51,013 bases of DNA from a virus (Duplodnaviria > Caudoviricetes). The translations under genes and the position numbers were made by a program. Below are positions 12,341 through 51,013 of this stretch, in pieces. The notes under the pieces are model-generated. The model searched no databases and was not told where the DNA came from. It was given only the letters and a program-made list of their open reading frames with translations. The stretch lies in the IMG/VR virus record IMGVR_UViG_3300045837_000026, positions 1 through 51,013 of that record. One strand, 5' to 3'. Position 1 is the stretch's first letter, and the number at the start of each line of letters is the position of its first letter.

Positions 12341-13561
12341 ATGACGGACACGAACGTTCCCGGCCTTGAATTCACGAGTACCGGCCTGACGGTGCCCAGC
12401 GAGCCGGCCGTTCTCGCAGGCGTGCAAGCCGATTACAACTCCGCGTTCGGCGGAAATCTCAACCCGTCGCTCGAAACCCCCCAAGGTCAGCTCGCCAGCT
12501 CTACAGCGGCGATCATTTCAGACGCGAACAGTATTTTTGCCGAATTCGTTAACCAAGTCAATCCCGACACGGCCGACGGGTTCATGCAAGACGCTATTGC
12601 CCGTATCTACTTCCTGAATCGCAATGCGGGCGCTCCCACGTCGGTGCAGTGCGTGTGCGTGGGCCAAGCTGGTGTTCCGATCCCGACCGGCGCGCGGGCG
12701 CAGGACACGAGCGGCAACATGTACGTGTGTACCCAAGGCGGCACTATCCCGGCTGGGGGCTCCATTACGTTGTCGTTCGCGAACGTGGTGAACGGTCCAA
12801 TTGCTTGCCCGGCCAACACGCTAACGACCATTTTCACGGCTGTGAACGGCTGGGAGTCAATTAACAATCCGGCTCCTGGCATCGTCGGTACAAACGTCGA
12901 ATCGCGAGCAGCGTTCGAGTTCCGACGTTCCCAATCGGTCGCGTTGAATGCTCACGGTTCGTTGCCGTCGATTTATGCGGCTGTGTTTGCGGTCCCCAAC
13001 GTGCTCGACGTGTATGCGTACGAGAATACGACTAATAACCCGATCACGGTGGGCTCGACTTCCTACACGCTCGCGCCCCACTCATTGTATGTCGCGGCGG
13101 TCGGCGGCGATCCCAATGCCATCGCACAGGCGATATGGTCGAAGAAAGATGTTGGTTGCGACTACAACGGCAACACGTCCGTTATCGTTACGGATACCAG
13201 CGGTTACAGCATTCCGTATCCGTCGTACACGGTGAAGTTCAACGTGCCAACGACGCTTCCTATTTACTTCGCGGTACAAATCGCGAACAGTGCGAGTCTG
13301 CCGTCCAATATCGTGTCGTTGGTCCAAAACGCGGTCGTGAATGCGTTTACAGGGGCGGATGGCAGCACGCGCGTACGTATCGGCTCATTGCTGCTCGCGA
13401 GCAAGTTTTATGGACCAGTCGCAGCGATCGGTCCCGAGGTTTCGATTCTGTCAATTCTGCTCGGCACGAGCGCGGGCGGCGCGACGCTGAACAGCTTGCA
13501 AATTGGGATTGACCAAGCCCCGACCATTTCAGCCGCCAATGTAGCCGTGACGCTTGTATGA
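12341..13561 (+). CDS. Baseplate J-like wedge protein
   Basis: LETPQGQL, NPDTADG.MQDAI.RIYF and ESRA.FE.RR motifs. Confidence 0.9.
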   Translation: MTDTNVPGLEFTSTGLTVPSEPAVLAGVQADYNSAFGGNLNPSLETPQGQLASSTAAIISDANSIFAEFVNQVNPDTADGFMQDAIARIYFLNRNAGAPTSVQCVCVGQAGVPIPTGARAQDTSGNMYVCTQGGTIPAGGSITLSFANVVNGPIACPANTLTTIFTAVNGWESINNPAPGIVGTNVESRAAFEFRRSQSVALNAHGSLPSIYAAVFAVPNVLDVYAYENTTNNPITVGSTSYTLAPHSLYVAAVGGDPNAIAQAIWSKKDVGCDYNGNTSVIVTDTSGYSIPYPSYTVKFNVPTTLPIYFAVQIANSASLPSNIVSLVQNAVVNAFTGADGSTRVRIGSLLLASKFYGPVAAIGPEVSILSILLGTSAGGATLNSLQIGIDQAPTISAANVAVTLV

Positions 13562-14628
13562 CCGTTCAGGTTCCTAATCTTGTCGGGTTGGATACGACAA
13601 CGGCCACGGCCGTACTTGCAGGGTACGGCCTTGTGCTGGGCACGACTTCGCAGGTTTATAGCTCGACCGTTACGACTGGTCTGATTGTCTCGACGAGCCC
13701 TATTGCGGGAACAAACGTTGCGGCCGGCTCGGCTGTCAACATCGTACTGTCTCAAGGGCCGCAACCGGGGCTTGTCCCGAACATCGTGGGGCTTACTCAG
13801 GCGCAGGCGCAAATTGCGCTCGCAACGGTAGGACTCACAACGGGATCGGTCACGCCCGAGTTAAGCGATTCTATACAGCCCGGTTCGATTTCGAGCCAAC
13901 ACCCGACCCCCGGTACGCTGCTTGCGGTCGGATCGGCTGTCAATGTTGGCTTGTCCGTGTTCGACTTGCCGTTTGACTACAACAAAACGATTATAAGCCA
14001 GTACGCAAACAGTCCAACATTGCTTCGTCTCATTTCCAACATGTTGGCGTATATCGACCCGCGCGCGAACTTTCAGGCGTTCTATCAATTCGTCTGGAAT
14101 GTCGATACTGCTGTCGGGTTCGGGCTAGACATTTGGGGAAAAATCGTAGGCGTTTCGCGTCTGATTCAGCTCTCGTCGAATATCAAGACGTTCGGCTACC
14201 AAAATGCGGATGTTCCGCCCGATTGGCAACCGTTTGGTCAAGGTACGTTCACGAGTGGAGCGGCAAGCGCTCAGGCGTACTTACTACCGGATGACGCGTA
14301 TAGGACCCTGATACTTGCGAAGGCTCTAGCGAATATCAGCGCCACGACAGCCCCGGCGTTGAATCAACTTTTGCGCAACCTGTTTCCGGGGCGTGGACGT
14401 TGCTACGTTATCGACTCCGGCGCGATGACGATGCATTTCGTTTTCGAGTTCGCGCTCAGCAACGTCGAGTTCGCGATACTCTCTCAGTCGGGCGCGCTCC
14501 CGCACCCCGCAGGCGTCGGGTACAACGTCATCGTGATTCCCCCGGCGCAATACTTTGGATTCGCCGAACAGGGCTCGGCCGTTCTGCCGTGGGGCAGCGG
14601 CGTTTACTACTTGCCTCCACAGGTTTAA
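13558..14628 (+). CDS. DUF2612-type baseplate wedge protein with two N-terminal PASTA-like domains
   Basis: Two repeats VPN(L/I)VGL..G(L/S)I.S..P..GT....GSAVN...S, then TIISQYANSP, TAVGFGLDIWG.IVGVSR, L.DDAYR.LI..KA.ANI and LPHPAGV. Confidence 0.85.
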   Translation: MTVQVPNLVGLDTTTATAVLAGYGLVLGTTSQVYSSTVTTGLIVSTSPIAGTNVAAGSAVNIVLSQGPQPGLVPNIVGLTQAQAQIALATVGLTTGSVTPELSDSIQPGSISSQHPTPGTLLAVGSAVNVGLSVFDLPFDYNKTIISQYANSPTLLRLISNMLAYIDPRANFQAFYQFVWNVDTAVGFGLDIWGKIVGVSRLIQLSSNIKTFGYQNADVPPDWQPFGQGTFTSGAASAQAYLLPDDAYRTLILAKALANISATTAPALNQLLRNLFPGRGRCYVIDSGAMTMHFVFEFALSNVEFAILSQSGALPHPAGVGYNVIVIPPAQYFGFAEQGSAVLPWGSGVYYLPPQV

Positions 14629-14631
14629 GAC

Positions 14632-15945
14632 ATGGGCGCACCAAAACCGCCAGTAATACCGGAACCGTTTGCGAACAACGCAACGTCGAGTTACAAAAAC
14701 ACGATTCCCGATACGACCGTCGCGGCCGGCGCGGCTTCGTGGTCATTGGGATTCCCACCCGTCACGATGCAGCCCGAAGTGTCTGGCGGTGTGCCTCCGT
14801 TCGGTCAGGATTTCAACGGCGTTCTGTTTGCGCTGTCTGCTCACGACTACTACGTGCAGGCAGGACAGCTCTACACATGGGATGCGGGCGTTGTAGCTGA
14901 CATCGGCGGCTATGCGGTCGGGGCTGTGCTCGCAAGCACGGACGGAACGACGGTTTGGTACAACACTGTCGCAAACAACTCGACGAACCCGGATAATGAT
15001 TCAACGGCGGCCGGCTGGGTGCCGATCGCGGCGTACGGGTTTACAAACGTAACGGGGCTGACCGGTGGCAATGTTACGCTCGCGCCGTCGCAAACTCGCA
15101 AAAGCGTCATTGTGTTGACTGGTACGCTGACCAGTAACCTCAATCTGATTCTACCGACGACCAAACAGCAATGGTTGATTGTCAATCAGACATCGGGCAA
15201 TTTCGTTACGACGGCCAAAACGGCGGCCGGTTCGGGCGTAGTCATTCCGCAAGGCGGCTTTGGGTCACCGGTTGGCGTGTACGGGGACGGTACCAATATT
15301 TACCCGACCGTCGCGCCGCTGAGCGTGCCGATTGACCAAAACCCGAACCCGCTGACAATCGCGGAGCGTGACAACACGGGGCTTCTGCAAGCCAGCTATT
15401 TCCTCGCGACAAGCGGTTGGGAGAATCCTTCCCTACAGCCGTTTCAGGGTTTCATCGGCCTGGGGCCGGATGACGCGACGTACCGTAAGTACCACATTGC
15501 CGACGTGGAAGCCGCGATGTTGTTGCAGAACATTGGCGGTGCGGTTACTCCGTCGCAGGTGCCGCTTCTGTCGTCAATGCCCGGTGGCGTTACCCCGTCA
15601 CAGGTTCCGGCGCTCTCAGCTCTGCTCGGTTCCGTGTTGCCTGGGCAGGTTCCATCAGGCGCCGTGACTCAATTTTTCACTCAGTCGCTCGGTCAAACGG
15701 GCTGGTGTCAATTCCCGAACGGTCTGATTATCCAATGGGGATATGCAACGGGCGGTCAAAATATCAACGTCAGTTTCCCGAAAGTGTTTCCCAACGCTGC
15801 GTTCGCAGGTTTTTGTAATACAGCGAATCGTAACTTTATGGGCGGTCAGGGAACCAACTTCGTGTGGGGTCTCACTCAGTTTGGTATGGGAATCACGGTT
15901 GACCCGACTCCCGGCCAAGGCTATTGGCTTGCAATAGGTTATTAA
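14632..15945 (+). CDS. Tail fibre protein 1
   Basis: GFPP.TM.P...GG.PP.GQDFNG.L and IGGY..GAVL baseplate anchor; C-terminal GW..FPNGLIIQWG...FP..FPN tip domain. Confidence 0.85.
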   Translation: MGAPKPPVIPEPFANNATSSYKNTIPDTTVAAGAASWSLGFPPVTMQPEVSGGVPPFGQDFNGVLFALSAHDYYVQAGQLYTWDAGVVADIGGYAVGAVLASTDGTTVWYNTVANNSTNPDNDSTAAGWVPIAAYGFTNVTGLTGGNVTLAPSQTRKSVIVLTGTLTSNLNLILPTTKQQWLIVNQTSGNFVTTAKTAAGSGVVIPQGGFGSPVGVYGDGTNIYPTVAPLSVPIDQNPNPLTIAERDNTGLLQASYFLATSGWENPSLQPFQGFIGLGPDDATYRKYHIADVEAAMLLQNIGGAVTPSQVPLLSSMPGGVTPSQVPALSALLGSVLPGQVPSGAVTQFFTQSLGQTGWCQFPNGLIIQWGYATGGQNINVSFPKVFPNAAFAGFCNTANRNFMGGQGTNFVWGLTQFGMGITVDPTPGQGYWLAIGY

Positions 15946-15946
15946 C

Positions 15947-16681
15947 ATGCCCGGACAACCGAACCCTGTAAAAATGGTAGAGGCGTTTGGCGTCAACGCT
16001 GCGTCTGCCTACATTACAAAACCCTTCCCGGTTAGCTCGCAGATTGGGGTAACACCGGGTCGAGCGTCACTCAACGACGGTTTCGTGCCGTTGAATATGA
16101 CGCCACCCTCGGCCGGGGGCATCCCACCGTCGGGTGCGGACATGAACGGTATTTTGTACCTCATGTCTACCAACATCGCCGCGTTGTCTGCCGGTCAGGT
16201 GTTCAACGTTTTCGACGCGGCATACGCGGCGGCCATCGGCGGCTATGCTGTGGGAGCCGTATTGGCTCAATCTGTGGACGCTTCCGCGCGTTGGGTCAAT
16301 CTCATTGCCGGCAACACGACCAACCCGGACACGGGCGGCGCTGGGTGGATGTCCACAAAACCGCTGTACGCGTCGTTCACTGCTGCTTCGGGCAGCAACA
16401 ATAACGTAACGCTTGGAGGCGCCAGCGATTATGTGCTCGACGTGGATTGTACAGCCGGCAACGTGTCACTCACGGGGCTGGTAGCTCAGCGCGACGGCCA
16501 GCGTGTGACGATCGTTCGCAAAGACGCCACCGCAAACACGTTGACACTAACGTCAAACGACGCAAGCTCGACAGCGGCGAATCGTTTCCGTATCGTGTCC
16601 GGGGGGCTCGGGCTTCCGCTCCAGTATATGACCGTGACCCTTCAGTACAGCTCAACATTAGCTCTTTGGGTGCAAGCATGA
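15947..16681 (+). CDS. Short tail fibre/adaptor protein, paralog of the fibre 1 N-terminus
   Basis: GF.PLNM.P..AGG.PP.G.DMNG.L and IGGYAVGAVL shared with the preceding gene. Confidence 0.8.
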   Translation: MPGQPNPVKMVEAFGVNAASAYITKPFPVSSQIGVTPGRASLNDGFVPLNMTPPSAGGIPPSGADMNGILYLMSTNIAALSAGQVFNVFDAAYAAAIGGYAVGAVLAQSVDASARWVNLIAGNTTNPDTGGAGWMSTKPLYASFTAASGSNNNVTLGGASDYVLDVDCTAGNVSLTGLVAQRDGQRVTIVRKDATANTLTLTSNDASSTAANRFRIVSGGLGLPLQYMTVTLQYSSTLALWVQA

Positions 16682-18738
16682 TTCGTTCCGCTTTCGTTCG
16701 ACTTCTCGCGGCGGCATTGATCGCCGTTGCTCCGACCAGTTACGCGCAGCTCTATCCGTATTTCGGGCCATCCAATGGCATCATGAAGGGCTCGACAAGC
16801 ACGCCGCAAACTTCGGCGGCTACGAGTACGGATGTCATCGGCCTATTCTCGGGATCCTGTACCGCGTCTACGTTTGTGCGTGGGGACGGCTCGTGTCAGA
16901 TCGTAGCAGGCGGTATCACGGGGCTGGCGAATCCGACAGGAACTATCGGCCTGTCAGCGGTGAACGGCTCTGCTACGACGGCGTTGCGTTCTGACGGCGC
17001 TCCGGCACTGTCGCAGGGTATCAGCCCGACATGGACCGGAACGCACATGTTCGCAGGCGGGATTATCGGCGGAGTCACCACGGCCGGAGTCAATATCGGT
17101 CAAAGCGCAGGAGCCGCCGTGTTCCGATTCGTGGACACGACAGGTCCGGCCAACGGCAAAGCGTGGCAGTTCAACACCTCCACGACTGGCACCGTGTTCA
17201 ACATGGGTGCGATTTCGGATGATTTTTCCACTACGTTCCGAAACTTTTTAACAGCTACGCGCTCAGCGGGATCGATTGCTAACTTGTCGTTTGGGAATCC
17301 GACGGACAGCCCAACGTATAATTTCAACGGCACTGGAACAGCAACTTTTGGCGGTGCCGTGTCGGTAAGCGGCGGCGGAAGTTTGCTCAAAGGGCCGGTT
17401 ACTGTTTCGGTTCCGACTTCAGGAAATCCGTTGACGGTCGTCACAACGACCGGTGCGTTTGGCAGCTCCGCATCCACCGTATCAGACGGCGTGAACTATA
17501 CGATTGCGCTCGGTCGAAGCGGCACGACTGGAAGTGTTGGCTACGTCGGCGGCGCGAGCGGGTCTCAGCTCGACATCGGGGCGAGTGGCACGGCATGGGC
17601 TCGGCTCAACACATCAGGTAACTGGACATTCAACACGCCGTCTAGTGGCGCTGCCGTAACGGTCAATGCTTCTGGCGCCTCACCGGCTTTAACCCTAAAT
17701 GGGGCCGGAGCAACGCAGCTTACAGCGTTGCAGTTACAGCAGTCGGGGCAATCAGCTTGGCAGCTTTACCAAGCGGCTTCTAGCAGCACATTGCATTTGT
17801 GGAACGGTAGCAGCGGCGACGTAATGACCGTTACCAATGCTGGCAACGTAGGGGTCAACGCCGCCAGCAGCGGAAGCTCCTTGACTGTCAATCAGGCCAA
17901 CGGTAACGCGTCCCCAACTCTACAATTGTCCGGGCCGGCTAGTACCGCGGTGTCTCTGGGGATTTCACAGACTTCGGGCGGTAACTGGCAAATTTATAAC
18001 CCGGCTGGGTCTACGAGCTTGCGCTTGTACGATGGCTCCGGCGATAGAGTTATATTCAACACTGGAGGCGGCGCCACATTCAACGCTCCTACCAGCGGTA
18101 CGACTGTTACCGCAAACGGGCTTGCTGGACAGTACGGCGTCGTTGTGAACGGGTCTTCTACTGCCTCGCAGTCGTTGGGCGCCCGAGTATTCGCCGGTAC
18201 AAATTCGAGTGATTTCAATCTGGCGTTAACGAACCAAACCGGTACTACTAACTTCATGCTCGTTCACGGTGACGGCGGAATAGAAGTCGGTTCACCGACG
18301 GGCGGGGATAAAGGCGCCGGTACGATTAATGCGCAAAACCTGTATGTAAATGGTGTAGCGGTCGGCGGAGGCGGCGTAACGCAAACAAGCGGAAACACGT
18401 CTATTACAACTACGTCGGGCTGCACAGTTAATCAAAGTATGACGGTGAATTGGGTAGTCACCGGAAAACAGGTAACAGTTAGCTACCCCGGTGTTGCTTG
18501 CACTGCAAGCGGCACATCAGGGCTTGCATTCACACTTAACGGGCTGCCTGCGGCGATTAGGCCCACGACGCAAGGTACAAGCGTGGTTATGGTTGTGGAT
18601 AATGGGACGGCAAAAGCAGCAACGGGGGCTATAGATTCGGGCGGAACTCTGAATATTCTGACGGGTGCGGGCTCTTTTTCTGGTACCGGAACCTTCACTC
18701 TTAGCCGCGGCACCATTTCTTACGATACGGACAACTAA
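16678..18738 (+). CDS. Gly/Ser/Thr-rich fibre- or adhesin-like protein with predicted Sec signal peptide (686 aa)
   Basis: ATGA-coupled start; MIRSAFVRLLAAALIAVAPTSYA|Q leader; internal beta repeats; GSPTGGDKGAGTINA..LYVNG and GLPAAIRP fibre-like motifs. Confidence 0.75.
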   Translation: MIRSAFVRLLAAALIAVAPTSYAQLYPYFGPSNGIMKGSTSTPQTSAATSTDVIGLFSGSCTASTFVRGDGSCQIVAGGITGLANPTGTIGLSAVNGSATTALRSDGAPALSQGISPTWTGTHMFAGGIIGGVTTAGVNIGQSAGAAVFRFVDTTGPANGKAWQFNTSTTGTVFNMGAISDDFSTTFRNFLTATRSAGSIANLSFGNPTDSPTYNFNGTGTATFGGAVSVSGGGSLLKGPVTVSVPTSGNPLTVVTTTGAFGSSASTVSDGVNYTIALGRSGTTGSVGYVGGASGSQLDIGASGTAWARLNTSGNWTFNTPSSGAAVTVNASGASPALTLNGAGATQLTALQLQQSGQSAWQLYQAASSSTLHLWNGSSGDVMTVTNAGNVGVNAASSGSSLTVNQANGNASPTLQLSGPASTAVSLGISQTSGGNWQIYNPAGSTSLRLYDGSGDRVIFNTGGGATFNAPTSGTTVTANGLAGQYGVVVNGSSTASQSLGARVFAGTNSSDFNLALTNQTGTTNFMLVHGDGGIEVGSPTGGDKGAGTINAQNLYVNGVAVGGGGVTQTSGNTSITTTSGCTVNQSMTVNWVVTGKQVTVSYPGVACTASGTSGLAFTLNGLPAAIRPTTQGTSVVMVVDNGTAKAATGAIDSGGTLNILTGAGSFSGTGTFTLSRGTISYDTDN

Positions 18739-18744
18739 CACGAC

Positions 18745-18981
18745 ATGGACACGGAATACAAAGTTGGAGCGCTCGAAGCTCACGTGAAAGCCCTTCAGAC
18801 GGATGTCGCCGAAATCAAGGCGGACCAGAAGGAGCAAAACAAGATGCTCAAAGCGTTAGTTAGCGATATGGACCAACGCAAGGGTGTCAAAAAGGCCATC
18901 GCCGGTATGGTCACAACGGGAAGTATTTTCGGTGGGCTCGTCGGTTGGTTCCTTGAGCATTTCGTGTTGGGGAAACATTGA
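18745..18981 (+). CDS. Putative holin-like membrane protein
   Basis: Coiled-coil N-terminus plus C-terminal hydrophobic helix; directly upstream of the endolysin. Confidence 0.55.
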   Translation: MDTEYKVGALEAHVKALQTDVAEIKADQKEQNKMLKALVSDMDQRKGVKKAIAGMVTTGSIFGGLVGWFLEHFVLGKH

Positions 18982-19508
18982 TGGACCGCGCGCAGGCTAT
19001 CGCGTTGATGTTGCGGCTCGAAGGCGGCTACGTGGATCGTCCCGACGATCCGGGCGGCGCCACCAAGTACGGCATCACGCAAAAGCGACTCGACAGCCTG
19101 CGCGGAACGTTCCTGTCGTTACCTGCCAACGTGCGCGACCTGACGCCTGAGCAAGCAACGGGCATATACGGCGCCGTGCAATGGCGGCTGATTGCCGGCG
19201 ACCAGCTTGCGCCAGCCCTCGCGTGCCTGCTGCTCAACGCAGCCGTGAACTATGGCGAACCGACGGCTGTCATGCTGCTTCAGGAATGCGTCGGCGTGAA
19301 ACCTGACGGCGCAATGGGTCCGCGCACGCTCGCCGCCGTTGCCACGTGGCGTTCGGCCTATCTTCCCGAGCAGACACTACCGGAAGAGTTCGCCGCGCAC
19401 TGCGCCGTGCGGTATGCGCGCCTCGATGGACGACTTGACCAATTTGAGCTAGGATGGATGCGCCGACTTTTCCGCGTGTATACCTTAGCCATTTCGGAGC
19501 ATGCATGA
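18981..19508 (+). CDS. Endolysin, glycoside hydrolase family 108
   Basis: EGGYVD.PDDPGGATKYGIT motif; AVN.G, DG..GP.TLAA and F..GW..R motifs. Confidence 0.92.
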   Translation: MDRAQAIALMLRLEGGYVDRPDDPGGATKYGITQKRLDSLRGTFLSLPANVRDLTPEQATGIYGAVQWRLIAGDQLAPALACLLLNAAVNYGEPTAVMLLQECVGVKPDGAMGPRTLAAVATWRSAYLPEQTLPEEFAAHCAVRYARLDGRLDQFELGWMRRLFRVYTLAISEHA

Positions 19509-20182
19509 AATCCTTGACTCTACCTCACGCGCTTGCGTATCTGTTCGGGATTGGCGCCGCGGCGCTGCCCGTTGTTCAGCAGTTTGCACCCACTCTCGTG
19601 CCGGGGCCGACCGGGCTCGCTATCGCGGGCGGAGCCGGCGCGCTTCTCGCGTTCGGGCATCAGCTCTACACCATGTACCAGAGCAGCCAGAACGGCACCG
19701 TACCGGCGCCGAGTCCCGGCGCTGTCGTCAAAGTATTGCCGCTCTTGCTGACTGCCGCGCTCGTTGCGAGCCTGTGCGGGTCGCTTTCGGCATGCAAGAC
19801 GCTTCCGAGTGCCACTCAGCAGGCGGGCATTTCCGCAGCGGTGACTGTGGCGACCGGGGAGGCCATTCAGCAGGGCTCGACCGATTCTGTCACGTGGCGC
19901 AACCGGGCCGAGCAATTCCGAGCCATTGCGGTACAGGTCAAGGCGGTGAACGATGCGGGTAGCGCATCCCTGGCCACGCTGGCGGCCGATCTACAGCCGC
20001 AGCTCGCCAAGCTCGGGCCGGCCGACGTTATCGCCGCCAATGCGCTCGTAGCGGCTTTGACGCCCTACCTCGACGCGGAAATCAAGGCCCACCCGGAAGT
20101 CGGTAACGCGCAGGCGACCGTTGATCTGATTCTCGCGGCCGTCATTCAGGCGTGCGACGCGTACATTCCGATGACGGCCTGA
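19505..20182 (+). CDS. Lysis-region membrane protein with internal lipobox
   Basis: ATGA overlap; two N-terminal hydrophobic segments, a third ending in LSA-C (Cys97), then a helical domain. Confidence 0.6.
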   Translation: MKSLTLPHALAYLFGIGAAALPVVQQFAPTLVPGPTGLAIAGGAGALLAFGHQLYTMYQSSQNGTVPAPSPGAVVKVLPLLLTAALVASLCGSLSACKTLPSATQQAGISAAVTVATGEAIQQGSTDSVTWRNRAEQFRAIAVQVKAVNDAGSASLATLAADLQPQLAKLGPADVIAANALVAALTPYLDAEIKAHPEVGNAQATVDLILAAVIQACDAYIPMTA

Positions 20183-20619
20183 TGTTCCTGTCGCCTCTCA
20201 CGCTCCGCGCCGATCCGTTACCCGACAGGTGGATCGTCGCGGAGCCTTTGGTGTGGCAAGACCGTCTGTACGGTCGTATCGTCGTTCCAGTCGGCTTCCG
20301 TACCGACCTTGCCTCTACCCCCTTCCATGTTGACGACAACGGTCCGAGCCGGCGCCCTGCGGCCACGCACGACGCGCTGTACAAGCTCTATCGGCGCCTT
20401 GGGAAAGATTTCGCCGACCAGTTTCTACGGGACGCGATCCTCGCGGACGGCGGCGGCCGGTTCCGGGCTCAGGTGTACTATCGGGCGGTGCAATGGTTCG
20501 GCGGCCGGGCCTGGGCCGAAGACGGCGCACCGGTGACGGCGGCCGACTTCGATACTCCAGCCAATTTCGCCGCATGGCAGCTCGCCAGCGGATGGCGCAC
20601 AGGCCGCGCGGCGGGTTAA
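20182..20619 (+). CDS. DUF1353-family protein
   Basis: VP.GF.TDLAS.P, AA.HD.LY, AD..LR and YRAV..FG motifs. Confidence 0.85.
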   Translation: MFLSPLTLRADPLPDRWIVAEPLVWQDRLYGRIVVPVGFRTDLASTPFHVDDNGPSRRPAATHDALYKLYRRLGKDFADQFLRDAILADGGGRFRAQVYYRAVQWFGGRAWAEDGAPVTAADFDTPANFAAWQLASGWRTGRAAG

Positions 20620-21786: not shown

Positions 21787-21815
21787 TAACGGGCTCCTTA
21801 TGTGGAAGTGTGGCC

Positions 21816-21859
21816 AGTATGCACCCGTTTGACGGTTCCGTCAAATGACGTGCGTCACA
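21816..21859 (-). promoter_or_regulatory. Sigma70-like promoter TTGACG-N17-CATACT with palindromic box and CRP-like box
   Basis: Palindrome 21829-21844; TGTGA-N6-TCATT at 21844-21859 on the minus strand. Confidence 0.75.
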
Positions 21860-21861
21860 GT

Positions 21862-22338
21862 TCAGGGCCGCCCACACCGCGCGCCGAACGGCGTAGCTCC
21901 GCGCGAGAAATTGTTGGCCACGCTGGCCCCGGTCGCCAGGATGCTGACGGCATGCCATGCAATGCGCCCCGTATACCACGCGCCGACGTTCCCGTCATCG
22001 TCTTGTTCCGACCGATTAACGTGGTCATCGAACCAACGAGACACGTACGAGTGTACCGGCATAAGTAAAACGTTGATGGCCACGACTCTCGAACTCGACG
22101 GGTTCGGGCCGCCGTACATCGTACGCGCGAATGGGTCGGATTCGGAGTAGCACGTTGGCTTGCGCACGAACTGTGCAGTCTGCGCCGTGTCGATAGCGTC
22201 GAGTGTTTGCCAAACCGTCTCAGCTACACGGCTCGACGTGGCTGTAGGGAACGCAGCGCAACCGCTCGTCAAGATGGATATGGCCAGCACGACGAGAATC
22301 GCCACGATGAACGGCCAGTTTTCGCGTAGGGTTTTCAT
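21862..22338 (-). CDS. Putative lipoprotein/membrane protein
   Basis: Basic N-terminus, hydrophobic stretch, LTSG-C lipobox. Confidence 0.65.
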   Translation of the reverse strand: MKTLRENWPFIVAILVVLAISILTSGCAAFPTATSSRVAETVWQTLDAIDTAQTAQFVRKPTCYSESDPFARTMYGGPNPSSSRVVAINVLLMPVHSYVSRWFDDHVNRSEQDDDGNVGAWYTGRIAWHAVSILATGASVANNFSRGATPFGARCGRP

Positions 22339-23389: not shown

Positions 23390-23421
23390 ATCGGCGGCTC
23401 CAATTCGTTCAACGTGGCTTC

Positions 23422-23475
23422 ATGATGCCTTGATTTGACGGTACCGTCAAGTCTGGTTTTGTGACCCGCGTCAAT
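23422..23475 (-). promoter_or_regulatory. Promoter TTGACG-N17-CATCAT with perfect palindrome and CRP-like box
   Basis: TTGACGGTACCGTCAA at 23435-23450; TGTGA-N6-TCAAT at 23460-23475. Confidence 0.72.
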
Positions 23476-38931: not shown

Positions 38932-38962
38932 TGCTCTGGCTCCAGCGTTTGAACGTGGAGCC

Positions 38963-39009
38963 AGTTTGCCGCAATTTGACGCTATCGTCAAATGACGTGC
39001 GTCACAGTT
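38963..39009 (-). promoter_or_regulatory. Promoter TTGACG-N17-CAAACT with palindromic box and CRP-like box
   Basis: 38975-39009 is near-identical to 21828-21862. Confidence 0.75.
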
Positions 39010-40299: not shown

Positions 40300-40326
40300 T
40301 TGAGCAACTCCGTTCGATGTGGCGCT

Positions 40327-40380
40327 ATAGTGCCGCAGTTTGACGGTACCGTCAAATTTGATTTTGTGAGCCGCGTCGCA
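40327..40380 (-). promoter_or_regulatory. Promoter TTGACG-N17-CACTAT with perfect 18-bp palindrome and CRP-like box
   Basis: TTTGACGGTACCGTCAAA at 40339-40356; TGTGA-N6-TCGCA at 40365-40380. Confidence 0.72.
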
Positions 40381-49645: not shown

Positions 49646-50638
49646 ATGGGCTTTCAGCAATTCGTCAATTTGCAGCCGGTGCCGGGCGTTTCGGGCGACT
49701 TCGCGGGCTCCAACCCGCGCATGTCCGCCAGTGCCCCGGTCGGCGGGTACGTGGCGGCCCCTAACGTCACGGTCAACGGCGTGGCCGTCCCGGCGTTCGT
49801 CGTTGGCCGCTTCGCGTGGGGTGTGCCGAACAACGGTGACCCGACTCTCGGGCCGGCGCAGGCGGCGAACTACTACCAGCCCAAAGCGGTGCTTGGGTTC
49901 GTCCATCGCGAGAATCAAGCGATTATCACGGCGTTCCTGGGCGACGATGTGTTGGCCGTGCCGGCCGGCTACCAAGTCGGCATGATGTCGCGCGGCGACT
50001 TCTGGTGTGACTTTAGCGCTTCCAAATTCGGCATGGGGCCGGGCGCAACCGTCGGACAGAAAGTCTACGCCGATCCGTTAACCGGTCAGGCGTATGCGGC
50101 GGCGGCCGGCGCCGGCGTATCGATTGCCATTACTGCATCGCTCGCGTCCACTGGTGTGCTCACCGTGACCGCTACGGCCGGCACGCTCGCGGCCGGTCAG
50201 GTCATTACCGGTGCGGGTGTTCCGGCCGGTTCGTACATCCAATCGCAGCTCACCGGTACAGCGGGCTCGACGGGCACATACCAGCTCAACAATGGCGCGA
50301 CCGTCGCGTCGGAGTCGATGACTGCGACCGGGCCAATCGAAACCCCGTGGTACGTGACGCAGGCGACGCCCGCCCCGGCCGCCTTTACGGGCGCCGTCGC
50401 AGCGAATACCGGCGTGCTCACCGTTTCGGCGGTCGCCTCCGGCGCGCTAGCGGTGGGCCAGCGCGTCAGCGGAACCGGGCTCGACCCGCATACAGCAGTC
50501 ATTACGCGCCAGCTCACCGGTACGGCGGGCTCGACGGGCACGTATCAGCTCTCCTACTTCGGGGCGGCCGTCGCGTCGGAATCGATGACGGCGAGCGCGG
50601 GCATGGTCGGCAAAATCTCGACTTGGCAGGCGGCGTAA
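49646..50638 (+). CDS. Capsid decoration/cement protein paralog 1 with two inserted modules
   Basis: MGFQ..VN.QP.PG..GDFA..NPR, GRFAW, GFVHRENQA, GDFW, GQKVYAD and KISTW motifs. Confidence 0.85.
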   Translation: MGFQQFVNLQPVPGVSGDFAGSNPRMSASAPVGGYVAAPNVTVNGVAVPAFVVGRFAWGVPNNGDPTLGPAQAANYYQPKAVLGFVHRENQAIITAFLGDDVLAVPAGYQVGMMSRGDFWCDFSASKFGMGPGATVGQKVYADPLTGQAYAAAAGAGVSIAITASLASTGVLTVTATAGTLAAGQVITGAGVPAGSYIQSQLTGTAGSTGTYQLNNGATVASESMTATGPIETPWYVTQATPAPAAFTGAVAANTGVLTVSAVASGALAVGQRVSGTGLDPHTAVITRQLTGTAGSTGTYQLSYFGAAVASESMTASAGMVGKISTWQAA

Positions 50639-50641
50639 CCC

Positions 50642-51013
50642 ATGAGTTTCCAGACGAAAATCAACATCGTTCCCGGCCCTGCGGAACCCGGCGATTTCAT
50701 TGGCGTGAACCCGCGCGCTGTCGTGCTGGCCGGTCCGGGCCAGTACGTGGCCGACCCGGCCAACGGCCTGATTGTGGGCAACTTCGCTTGGGCCGACCCG
50801 GCGAGCGTGAACACGAGTCAGGCGAGCCAATCCGGTTGGCAGATTGGTTTTGTCCACCGTGAAAACAATGCCATCATCACGCAGTTCCTTGCGGAATATG
50901 CGTACCTGATTCCGGGCGGATATCCGGTGACGTTGTTCTCTCAGGGCGATTTCTGGGCCAAGTTCCTGAGCGGTGCAGTGCCCGGTCAGTCCGTGTATGC
51001 GGACAGCGTGACC
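50642..51013 (+). CDS. Capsid decoration paralog 2, 5' part (continues at 234-548)
   Basis: MSFQTKINIVPGPAEPGDFIGVNPR...GNFAW; open to the window end. Confidence 0.85.
   Translation, partial: MSFQTKINIVPGPAEPGDFIGVNPRAVVLAGPGQYVADPANGLIVGNFAWADPASVNTSQASQSGWQIGFVHRENNAIITQFLAEYAYLIPGGYPVTLFSQGDFWAKFLSGAVPGQSVYADSVT
50781..51013. repeat. Terminal direct repeat, right copy
   Basis: Matches 1-233 with one mismatch. Confidence 0.97.

Follow-up and report, generated by a model that had tools for sequence, protein, structure and literature searches.

Organization of the locus

The window, i.e., the whole analysed stretch of 51,013 nucleotides, derives from an uncultured contractile-tailed phage. 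The phage record carries a 233-nt terminal repeat as well as its own replication genes and represents a complete virus; no integrase was found among the 50 ORFs scanned against PHROGs. The gene under study (16678-18738, plus strand) encodes a fibre of 686 aa and is situated inside the tail module, past the baseplate genes, the gene order being sheath, tape measure, hub, baseplate J, DUF2612, a first fibre (fibre 14632), a short adaptor (15947, hereafter the stub), the leader-bearing fibre (16678), and the lysis genes. The region contains the following features:

14632..15945, plus strand: second tail fibre, complete and leaderless, 437 aa, with a stub-type anchor domain and its own Gp53-like C-terminal domain
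15947..16681, plus strand: leaderless 244-aa adaptor (stub); residues 1-144 form a baseplate-anchor domain also found in fibre 14632
16379-16678, plus strand: predicted portable beta-sandwich docking domain of the stub, residues 145-244
16678..16746, plus strand: Sec/SPase I-type leader of the 686-aa fibre, residues 1-23 (MIRSAFVRLLAAALIAVAPTSYA), called by rule; its ATG overlaps the stub stop codon
16747..16902, plus strand: conserved N-domain of the mature fibre, residues 24-75, with near-invariant C61/C73; predicted docking end
16927..17055, plus strand: linker motif ANPTGTIGLSAVNGSATTALRSDGAPALSQ...PTW, residues 84-126, common to many leaderless phage fibres
17485..18159, plus strand: three tandem beta-rich shaft repeats of 75 aa, residues 270-494
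18370..18738, plus strand: C-terminal receptor-binding head domain, residues 565-686, with C582/C608, plus stop codon
18745..20182, plus strand: lysis cassette directly 3' of the fibre gene, assigned from Pfam/PHROGs matches and hydrophobic segments
18745-18981, plus strand: XhlA-like small membrane protein of the lysis cassette
18978-19508, plus strand: leaderless GH108 endolysin of the lysis cassette
19454-20182, plus strand: protein with two hydrophobic segments, lysis cassette

The start codon ATG 16678 overlaps the stop codon TGA 16679-16681 of the stub gene (15947-16681) as ATGA, and the reading frame opened by it yields 686 aa, beginning with MIRSAFVRLLAAALIAVAPTSYA and continuing after the predicted cleavage site with QLYPYF. 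The translationally coupled start on which the original prediction relied is fixed by the conservation of this overlap. In relatives, the fibre frame opens just a few codons 5' of the leader-initiating Met, such that the hydrophobic segment must be N-terminal. A longer ORF starting at TTG 16447 was rejected: its additional 77 residues are Arg-rich, stem from a different frame over the stub gene, and have no counterpart in the relatives. Concerning the lysis cassette, the endolysin possesses neither a leader nor a SAR-type segment, which points to a hole-forming holin. A separate lipoprotein-like gene is located at 21862-22338 on the minus strand.

Leader sequence

Leaders were called by a home-made rule, not by SignalP, the criteria being positive charge in the n-region, a hydrophobic core devoid of charges, and small side chains at positions -3 and -1. 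In the 686-aa fibre, these parts are MIRSAFVR, LLAAALIAVA, and PTSYA, followed by Q; the c-region exhibits a helix-breaking Pro and S-Y-A ahead of the predicted cut, and residues 5-15 form a helix in the structure model. The rule calls the leader with cleavage after residue 23, in agreement with the Sec signal peptide predicted earlier. Across the window, four of the 53 genes were called, the 686-aa fibre being the sole call within the structural module. Homologs of five structural proteins from related loci served as controls, and none was called (0/80 in total; adaptor 0/21, fibre-437 0/21, DUF2612 0/17, baseplate-J 0/17, sheath 0/4).

Retention of the leader in homologs, a check named together with the original prediction, is found in all 25 fibres situated behind the adaptor and in 135 of 204 homologs overall. 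Among the adaptor-linked fibres its length varies from about 18 to 28 residues, and the mean pairwise identity among 23 aligned fibres amounts to 25% in the leader versus 53% in residues 24-75. Such drift of the leader beside a conserved mature N-terminus is more easily reconciled with a targeting signal than with a structural helix. A lipoprotein was rejected, as there is no lipobox and the cleavage site has no Cys in its vicinity, the first one being residue 61; with 686 aa and a fibre architecture, the protein likewise shows no lipobox Cys at +1 and no small size as in receptor-blocking or exclusion lipoproteins of the T5 Llp/Cor type.

Architecture of the fibre

The 686-aa protein is a real fibre, with shaft repeats and a receptor-binding head fold. 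In its N-domain, F29, P31, G34, G38, C61, and C73 are near-invariant. The adjoining linker motif (mean pairwise identity 63%) is the only stretch in common with most leaderless matches. About three beta-rich repeats had been noticed before; they correspond to three units of 75 aa, the motifs of which lie at residues 307, 382, and 457, i.e., at a spacing of exactly 75. Pairwise alignments of the units gave z values of 5.8, 6.0, and 10.7, and none of 300 shuffles reached the observed score. The repeats are visible only by such direct unit-versus-unit alignment, and self-BLAST of the fibre gave no internal repeat at E 1 or better. Residues from about 400 to 500 exhibit a weak likeness to fibre beta-helix shafts (Z about 5).

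The monomer model of the whole protein is poor (pLDDT 62) and can be relied on for the head and some shaft sections alone; within the head, ten-residue blocks mostly have a pLDDT of 80-90. The C-terminus, previously described as fibre-like, models as a viral receptor-binding head, with its best match to Zamilon Zav_19 (Z 15.0, rmsd 1.9, 115 aligned) and further matches to the reovirus sigma1 head (Z 10.4), the RBP heads of TP901-1 (9.7) and p2 (9.0), Listeria phage PSA gp15 (8.2), and adenovirus knobs (about 8). Pfam and PHROGs searches with the fibre returned no family at E 0.01 or better, and there was no Pfam match to the Peptidase_S74 intramolecular chaperone (PF13884). Its homologs are fibre-like, and some leader-bearing ones (P0011, P0014, P0036) carry a C-terminal PF13884. 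As stated originally, the fibre is devoid of the baseplate anchor: the anchor-domain profile finds homologs of the two upstream genes, and its 40 match rows include no fibre ORF that follows an adaptor.

Cysteines

The cysteines of the 686-aa fibre are situated at residues 61, 73, 582, and 608, i.e., as the two pairs near both ends that had been pointed out before, and the pattern proved to be a family-wide trait linked to the leader. Among the 135 leader-bearing homologs (of 204), the mature part contains an even number of cysteines in 127, an odd number in 6, and none in 2 (median 8), whereas the 69 leaderless homologs comprise 27 with even numbers, 29 with odd numbers, and 13 without cysteines (median 2). 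Cysteine density differs accordingly between the two groups (Mann-Whitney p = 1.4e-23), and a regular expression for the Cys-pair motif of the N-domain found 77/135 leader-bearing versus 0/69 leaderless homologs. A bias towards even cysteine numbers is a mark of exported disulfide proteins.

Pairing with the stub and docking model

The N-terminal part of the stub matches phrog_12796 tail fibre (E 2.8e-29), and its C-terminal domain is conserved even behind unrelated N-terminal parts. In the structure model of the stub, pLDDT averages 75 and exceeds 85 beyond about residue 100. In Foldseek, it matched best the N-terminus of CBA120 TSP4 (E 3.3e-4, probability 1.00, but with TM-scores of only about 0.3); further PDB matches were the KP1 baseplate, T4 gp9 (E 0.02), and T4 gp10 (E 0.2). 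By these matches, the stub may be likened to a branching, gp10-like adaptor. Of the two upstream genes originally considered adaptor-like, only 15947 retains this description; the product of 14632 is a complete short fibre (PF21882, E 4e-10; phrog_12796 tail fibre, E 3.7e-66).

In related viral contigs, 25 proteins (23 distinct sequences) contain the C-terminal domain of the stub, as defined by strong profile matches (E 5.7e-12 or better), and in all of them a fibre with a called leader follows directly next to it; stub and fibre overlap as ATGA in 17 of the 25 pairs. Judged from these sequences, the leader appears to be obligate in the stub-paired fibre family. The cassette of stub and fibre is portable: it can be preceded by unrelated N-terminal parts, and other phage backbones carry it as well. 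Neither the stretch of leader plus N-domain nor the stub C-terminal domain occurs in any of 50,697 deposited phage records. A tblastn search of these records with the entire fibre and with its first 141 residues gave one match, confined to the shared linker motif, and megablast with 16 kb of the window gave none. A contig search with an alignment of seven sequences yielded only three loci, all in metagenome-assembled genomes.

The complex was modelled from three copies each of stub residues 140-244 and fibre residues 24-135, using our own alignments and three controls. The 3:3 models reached ipSAE values of 0.82, 0.85, and 0.85, as against 0.00 for the best of the three controls; the mark applied to this score was attained in 116 of 157 solved complexes, as compared with 2 of 215 mismatched pairs, counts that apply here only approximately, as own alignments and three copies per chain are unlike the calibration set-up. 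Contacts agree in at least 87% among the runs, and the partners have a pLDDT of at least 88. On the fibre side, the modelled interface comprises residues 24-28, 30, and 41-44, and on the stub side residues 198, 200, and 217-230, such that the first residues past the predicted cleavage site (24-28) take part in the contact. Docking on adaptor domains, as proposed originally for both upstream products, is hence supported for the 15947 product (0.85 versus 0.00) and dropped for the 14632 product, which is not an adaptor. The modelling supports docking of the fibre N-terminus on the C-terminal domain of the stub.

Further comparisons are less favourable. The stub C-terminal domain shares its fold with repeat units inside long proteins (P0205, P0207) which themselves begin with a hydrophobic leader, so that this fold is not exclusively a docking socket, which counts against the docking interpretation. 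Co-variation between stub C-terminal domain and fibre N-domain, assessed from distance matrices (Mantel-type test), gave no specific signal (r = 0.19, with 10% of permutations as high); between anchor domain and fibre N-domain the same test gave r = 0.53. A search for fusions of stub and fibre yielded three longer proteins with the stub C-terminal domain, none of them joined to the fibre N-domain, a blank that is weak evidence.

Interpretation

Particles of tailed phages are taught to be built wholly in the cytoplasm, and a fibre that folds elsewhere would depart from this textbook account. From the results above we infer, with good support, export followed by docking, one of the options proposed originally, and the host-binding fibre probably folds outside the cytoplasm. 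All of the originally named refuting conditions that were examined came out in favour of the proposal. The leader and its conservation, the pairing of the genes, the cysteine pattern, the folds, and the modelled interface are computational results, from which export, cleavage, disulfide formation, and the time and place of docking are deduced. In its full form, i.e., a fibre in two pieces, of which the distal one undergoes export, acquires its disulfides in the periplasm, and docks at lysis, this interpretation stands at about an even chance of being correct. The genes 15947-16681 and 16678-18738 would then each supply one half of a single tail fibre. The leaderless stub of 244 aa would sit on the cytoplasm-built baseplate through its N-terminal anchor domain, while the 686-aa distal fibre, made off the same late mRNA through translational coupling, would be directed to the Sec translocon and relieved of its 23-residue leader by signal peptidase I. 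In the periplasm, the mature fibre would trimerise and form the disulfides C61-C73 and C582-C608. Once the holin opens the inner membrane, or upon lysis, its new N-terminus (Q24 onward) could plug into the C-terminal domain of the stub and so arm the virion with a receptor-binding head. It counts against this sequence of events that a periplasmic trimer would need to meet a cytoplasmic particle fast enough.

It is unlikely, in our judgement, that the hydrophobic N-terminus is not used for export and that folding of the fibre and its union with the stub both take place in the cytoplasm, with the segment retained or serving another role, e.g., delaying folding or tethering to a membrane. To our knowledge, all characterised tailed-phage fibres do assemble in the cytoplasm, and the translational coupling of stub and fibre would favour immediate pairing there. 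The excerpts consulted of an assembly review (PMC3185693) also agree with a cytoplasmic route in mentioning signal peptidase only in a reference on filamentous phages. However, all three regions of a signal peptide are present and vary freely in sequence and length, whereas the residues just after them are conserved; the strong bias towards even cysteine numbers is tied to the leader; and the modelled interface begins at residue 24, exactly where an uncleaved hydrophobic extension of 23 residues would sit.

More doubtful still is an exported fibre that acts off the virion, either as a host adhesin or as a free receptor-binding trimer in the periplasm or at the surface, which would mask or sequester the receptor and thereby exclude superinfection or shield progeny from debris. 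Leader and cysteines speak for it in the same way as for the two-piece fibre, the head has a receptor-binding fold, and phage T5 reportedly carries a gene for a receptor-blocking lipoprotein beside its receptor-binding gene. Nevertheless, obligate pairing and translational coupling tie the fibre to a stub that is anchored on the baseplate and itself lacks any receptor-binding part, and the complex model scores high, so that the adhesin or receptor-blocker alternative of the original prediction has lost ground. Moreover, the gene is part of the late structural operon, the phage yielded no integrase in the scan, Sec alone leads only to the periplasm in a diderm host, and the lipoprotein-like gene on the minus strand is a better candidate for exclusion. 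A lysogenic-conversion gene was rejected, as a complete virus with terminal repeat and own replication genes, and with no integrase among the scanned ORFs, renders it unlikely.

Returning to the exported two-piece fibre, a wider reading is conceivable, though we hold it slightly short of an even prospect: uncultured phages of a widespread group, which seems to comprise more than one tail type, may complete their virions outside the cytoplasm by means of the Sec and disulfide machinery. In these phages, the fibre would mature in the periplasm and snap by its newly cut N-terminus onto a socket of the particle after the holin breach.

If true, the last step of tailed-phage morphogenesis would be compartmentalised, and the phages would rely for their infectivity on export and oxidative folding by the host; with a fibre exported and added late, host range and infectivity would hinge on the Sec, signal peptidase, and Dsb systems of the host. 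Fibres could then bear disulfides or other modifications available only in the envelope, heterologous or cell-free production and fibre engineering would fail unless a periplasmic step is supplied, and receptor-binding proteins would escape those annotation pipelines in which a leader is reason enough to dismiss a protein as non-structural. As the cassette is compact (stub, leader, and a docking end of 50 residues), it is directly testable in the laboratory.

Comparison with known systems

Our literature search brought up no account of a Sec leader on the fibre of a tailed phage. The organization proposed here would be similar to that of the branched receptor-binding complexes built on gp10-like adaptors, CBA120 TSP4 with TSP1-3 and T4 gp10/gp9, in which a small baseplate-bound beta domain takes the N-terminus of a separate fibre or spike. 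There are, however, clear differences: The partners in the CBA120 and T4 systems assemble in the cytoplasm and are not known to carry leaders, whereas here the predicted docking partner always possesses a Sec-type leader and paired cysteines. The stub and these adaptors have little sequence in common (14-21% identity; TM-scores about 0.3).

The nearest cultured relatives, Burkholderia phages PE067 (gp25, 678 aa) and phiE131 and Pseudomonas phage Orisa, possess a single-piece tail fibre. They share the tail module (sheath 42-47% identical; baseplate J and DUF2612-type genes before the fibre), and their fibres share the N-terminal anchor, with 40-49% identity over stub residues 4-156. In PE067, anchor and distal fibre form one annotated gene of 678 aa, whereas here they are distributed over two genes.

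Substrates of Sec and signal peptidase I in diderm bacteria that receive disulfides from DsbA exhibit a similar n-region, core, Pro, and S-Y-A and even cysteine numbers in the mature part; the cargo here differs in being a predicted appendage of a phage virion instead of a host envelope protein. In the parts of the phage literature consulted, signal peptides and signal peptidase refer to lysis proteins, a pilin, the filamentous-phage reference, or bare counts per genome. That reference (203 in the excerpts of PMC3185693) concerns the coat of filamentous phages, e.g., the f1 pre-coat, a virion protein with a leader that is processed by the host signal peptidase. Filamentous phages assemble in the membrane and extrude without lysis, whereas the phage studied here is contractile-tailed and lysis-dependent, with a particle built in the cytoplasm.

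Leader-bearing fibre and its gene pair

The fibre is encoded together with two further fibre-type genes:

14632-15945, +, complete leaderless tail fibre of 437 aa (fibre-437)
15947-16681, +, leaderless adaptor product of 244 aa with an N-terminal anchor domain and a C-domain at residues 145-244 (the stub)
16678-18738, +, fibre product P0001

The start codon of the P0001 gene (ATG 16678) overlaps the stop codon of the stub gene as ATGA, and the product of 686 aa begins with MIRSAFVRLLAAALIAVAPTSYA|QLYPYF. A rule-based search (basic n-region, uncharged hydrophobic core, small residues at -3 and -1) predicts a leader here, with cleavage after residue 23. This rule calls four of the 53 genes in the window; besides P0001 these are a membrane protein of the lysis cassette, an ORF with lipoprotein-like features and a probable false call. 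In the related loci no homolog of five further structural proteins is called (0/80: stub 0/21, fibre-437 0/21, DUF2612 0/17, baseplate J 0/17, sheath 0/4). The three repeat motifs are spaced by exactly 75 residues, and the relatedness of these 75-aa units is real (z 5.8-10.7; 0/300 shuffles reach the observed score). The analysis confirms and strengthens the original observation of a leader-bearing fibre starting at ATG 16678. P0001 possesses cysteines at positions 61, 73, 582 and 608 and matches no Pfam or PHROG family.

Concerning relatives, a word-indexed search yielded 65 proteins and a full HMMER scan 2,908 proteins at E <= 0.001 (best 150 used); in IMG/VR, 299 stretches matched, 216 of which encode relatives, and the best 80 of these 216 loci were kept. 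A profile of the last 100 residues of the stub, run on all ORFs of the fetched related loci (from the best 80 of 216), gave 25 strong matches (E 5.7e-12 or better), corresponding to 23 distinct sequences, since L006 equals L007 and L037 equals L038. The stub C-domain protein is directly followed by an ORF with a rule-called leader in 25/25, the motif (A/Q)x(F/Y)xxFxPxxG(I/V)LxG continues after the leader in all 25 downstream fibres, and 17 pairs exhibit the ATGA stop/start overlap. A weak extra match (L047, E 2.9e-5) is the C-terminal domain of a 731-aa fibre and is followed by a leaderless ORF. As the fibre reading frame in relatives opens only a few codons 5' of the leader methionine, the hydrophobic segment cannot be internal. 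Across the 23 aligned fibres the leader shows 25% identity, residues 24-75 show 53% and the linker motif 63%. Judged from these sequences, both the leader and the stub-fibre gene pair are family traits.

Two of the fibre leaders (L029:3297, ..ARRAYIALG..; L056:9986, ..TRRAYVALG..) contain twin arginines in a Tat-like n-region; the n-regions of the other related leaders carry single or paired K/R.

Cysteine content

Cysteines were counted in 204 homologs, a query-biased set drawn from clusters at 50-90% identity, of which 135 carry a rule-called leader.

Cysteine number in homologs with and without a leader
Leader-bearing (mature part), n=135: even 127, odd 6, none 2; median 8; Cys-pair module in 77
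Leaderless, n=69: even 27, odd 29, none 13; median 2; Cys-pair module in 0

Cysteine density differs between the two groups (Mann-Whitney p = 1.4e-23). An even cysteine number tied to a leader is a mark of disulfide-bonded exported proteins, such that the bias constitutes an independent argument for the leader being used. It thereby speaks against the reading that the leader is unused and the fibre assembled in the cytoplasm, which we consider improbable.

Predicted folds

Overall, the P0001 monomer model is of low quality (pLDDT 62), with a good part at residues 565-686. Structural matches of this modelled C-terminal part are receptor-binding heads of viruses: Zamilon Zav_19 (Z 15.0, rmsd 1.9, 115 aligned), reovirus sigma1 (Z 10.4), the lactococcal RBP heads of TP901-1 (Z 9.7) and p2 (Z 9.0), Listeria phage PSA gp15 (Z 8.2) and adenovirus knobs (Z about 8).

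The N-terminal 150 residues of the stub are an anchor domain also present in fibre-437 and in cultured-phage fibres (Burkholderia, Pseudomonas). The model of the stub (pLDDT 75; >85 from about residue 100) most closely resembles the adaptor region at the N-terminus of CBA120 TSP4 (E 3.3e-4), followed by a Klebsiella phage baseplate and then T4 gp9/gp10; because the TM-scores are low (about 0.3), the adaptor-type fold is suggestive rather than firm. The C-domain is conserved behind unrelated N parts in L003, L015, L021, L037/38 and L057, whose backbones also differ (adjacent head genes, or another baseplate set); stub C-domain and leader-bearing fibre accordingly act as a portable cassette.

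Modelled docking on the stub

In a complex model of three copies each of stub residues 140-244 and fibre residues 24-135, with an alignment for each, ipSAE reached 0.82, 0.85 and 0.85, and the highest-scoring of three controls gave 0.00; the same score mark is reached by 116/157 solved complexes and 2/215 mismatched pairs, a calibration that is rough for custom alignments and the multi-copy set-up. Contact agreement among runs was at least 87% and partner pLDDT at least 88. Fibre residues 24-28, 30 and 41-44 face stub residues 198, 200 and 217-230, such that the modelled contact starts at the first residue past the predicted cleavage site. Of the two docking partners originally proposed, the model thus supports the 15947 product, whereas docking on the 14632 product was not borne out. 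The original interpretation of an exported, docking fibre is hence supported in part.

A distance-matrix test showed no specific co-variation of the stub C-domain with the fibre N-domain (r = 0.19, a value reached in 10% of permutations; anchor versus fibre N-domain, r = 0.53), and the stub-type C-domain recurs internally in two other proteins, P0205 (1009 aa; four copies) and P0207 (607 aa). Neither result supports a dedicated socket. P0205 and P0207 each start with a hydrophobic leader and contain many cysteines.

Proposed mechanism

For a fibre in two pieces, the distal one being exported and docking at lysis, we see roughly an even chance. The distal piece would be Sec-exported with cleavage of its leader, would undergo oxidation and trimerisation in the periplasm, and would dock on the cytoplasm-built particle upon breach of the inner membrane. 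The lysis cassette lies directly 3' of the P0001 gene, and its GH108 endolysin possesses neither a leader nor a hydrophobic N-terminus, which implies a hole-forming holin. Such holes would allow cytoplasm and periplasm to mix ahead of outer-membrane failure, and fibres can join particles after lysis, as in T4 in vitro complementation. That the exported fibre acts off the virion appears less probable still than an unused leader; the rest of the probability is assigned to no reading.

Genome organization

The window of 51,013 bases is an entire virus record. Its first 233 bases recur exactly as a direct repeat at the end (1-233 and 50781-51013), and the collection rates completeness at 100%; it represents a complete genome that has either circular permutation or terminal redundancy, with about 50.8 kb of unique sequence. 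It contains a contractile-tail structural module (major head, DUF3383 sheath, tape measure, hub, baseplate J, DUF2612) and replication genes (DNA polymerase, helicase, primase, Gp2.5-like SSB, exonuclease); no integrase was seen among the scanned ORFs. Judged by the sheath, Burkholderia phages PE067 and phiE131 and Pseudomonas phage Orisa are its closest relatives in culture (42-47% identity). Further features are:

27-548, 560-1138 and 49646-50638, +, three PHROG 2122 ('minor head protein') paralogues
13558-14628, +, DUF2612 baseplate protein with two N-terminal PASTA domains (E 5.2e-26)
20152-20619, +, DUF1353 protein after the lysis genes, PHROG 1158 (labelled tail assembly chaperone)
21803-21862 / 38950-39009, repeat pair 1
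23406-23472 / 40311-40377, repeat pair 2 (repeats of 60-67 nt with 78-80% identity in both pairs)
21862-22338, -, ORF of 158 aa with a lipoprotein-like leader (MKTLRENWPFIVAILVVLAISILTSGC...), just past the lysis genes on the opposite strand

Two of the three PHROG 2122 genes share a 42-nt repeat. PASTA domains occur in bacterial penicillin-binding proteins and Ser/Thr kinases; for most DUF2612 homologs of related loci the alignment begins at query residue 140, apparently without the PASTA part, and for those of L016 and L052 at residues 3-4, within longer proteins. In L029 and L036, too, a DUF1353 gene lies downstream of the fibre. Both repeat pairs are centred on palindromes of the TTTGACGG-N-CCGTCAAA type, lie at transcription-unit borders and are candidate promoter/operator sites. 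The 158-aa ORF has no PHROG family; its product may be a spanin or an exclusion lipoprotein.

Comparison with known systems

In Burkholderia phage PE067 the fibre is annotated as a single gene (678 aa), whereas here it comprises two. The leader-plus-N-domain stretch is absent from 50,697 deposited phage records and is found at three loci in 185,579 species genomes, all in metagenome-assembled genomes. No tailed-phage fibre with a Sec leader was found in the literature searched, which comprises non-subscription journals; in the portions covered, signal peptides or signal peptidase come up only in connection with lysis proteins, a pilin and a reference on a filamentous phage, or as per-genome counts.

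We know of no described tailed-phage fibre combining gp10-type docking with Sec/Dsb-type export. The proposed working mode of stub and fibre resembles that of gp10-type branched receptor-binding complexes, and the predicted leader and paired-cysteine features of the fibre are like those of ordinary Sec/Dsb substrates.
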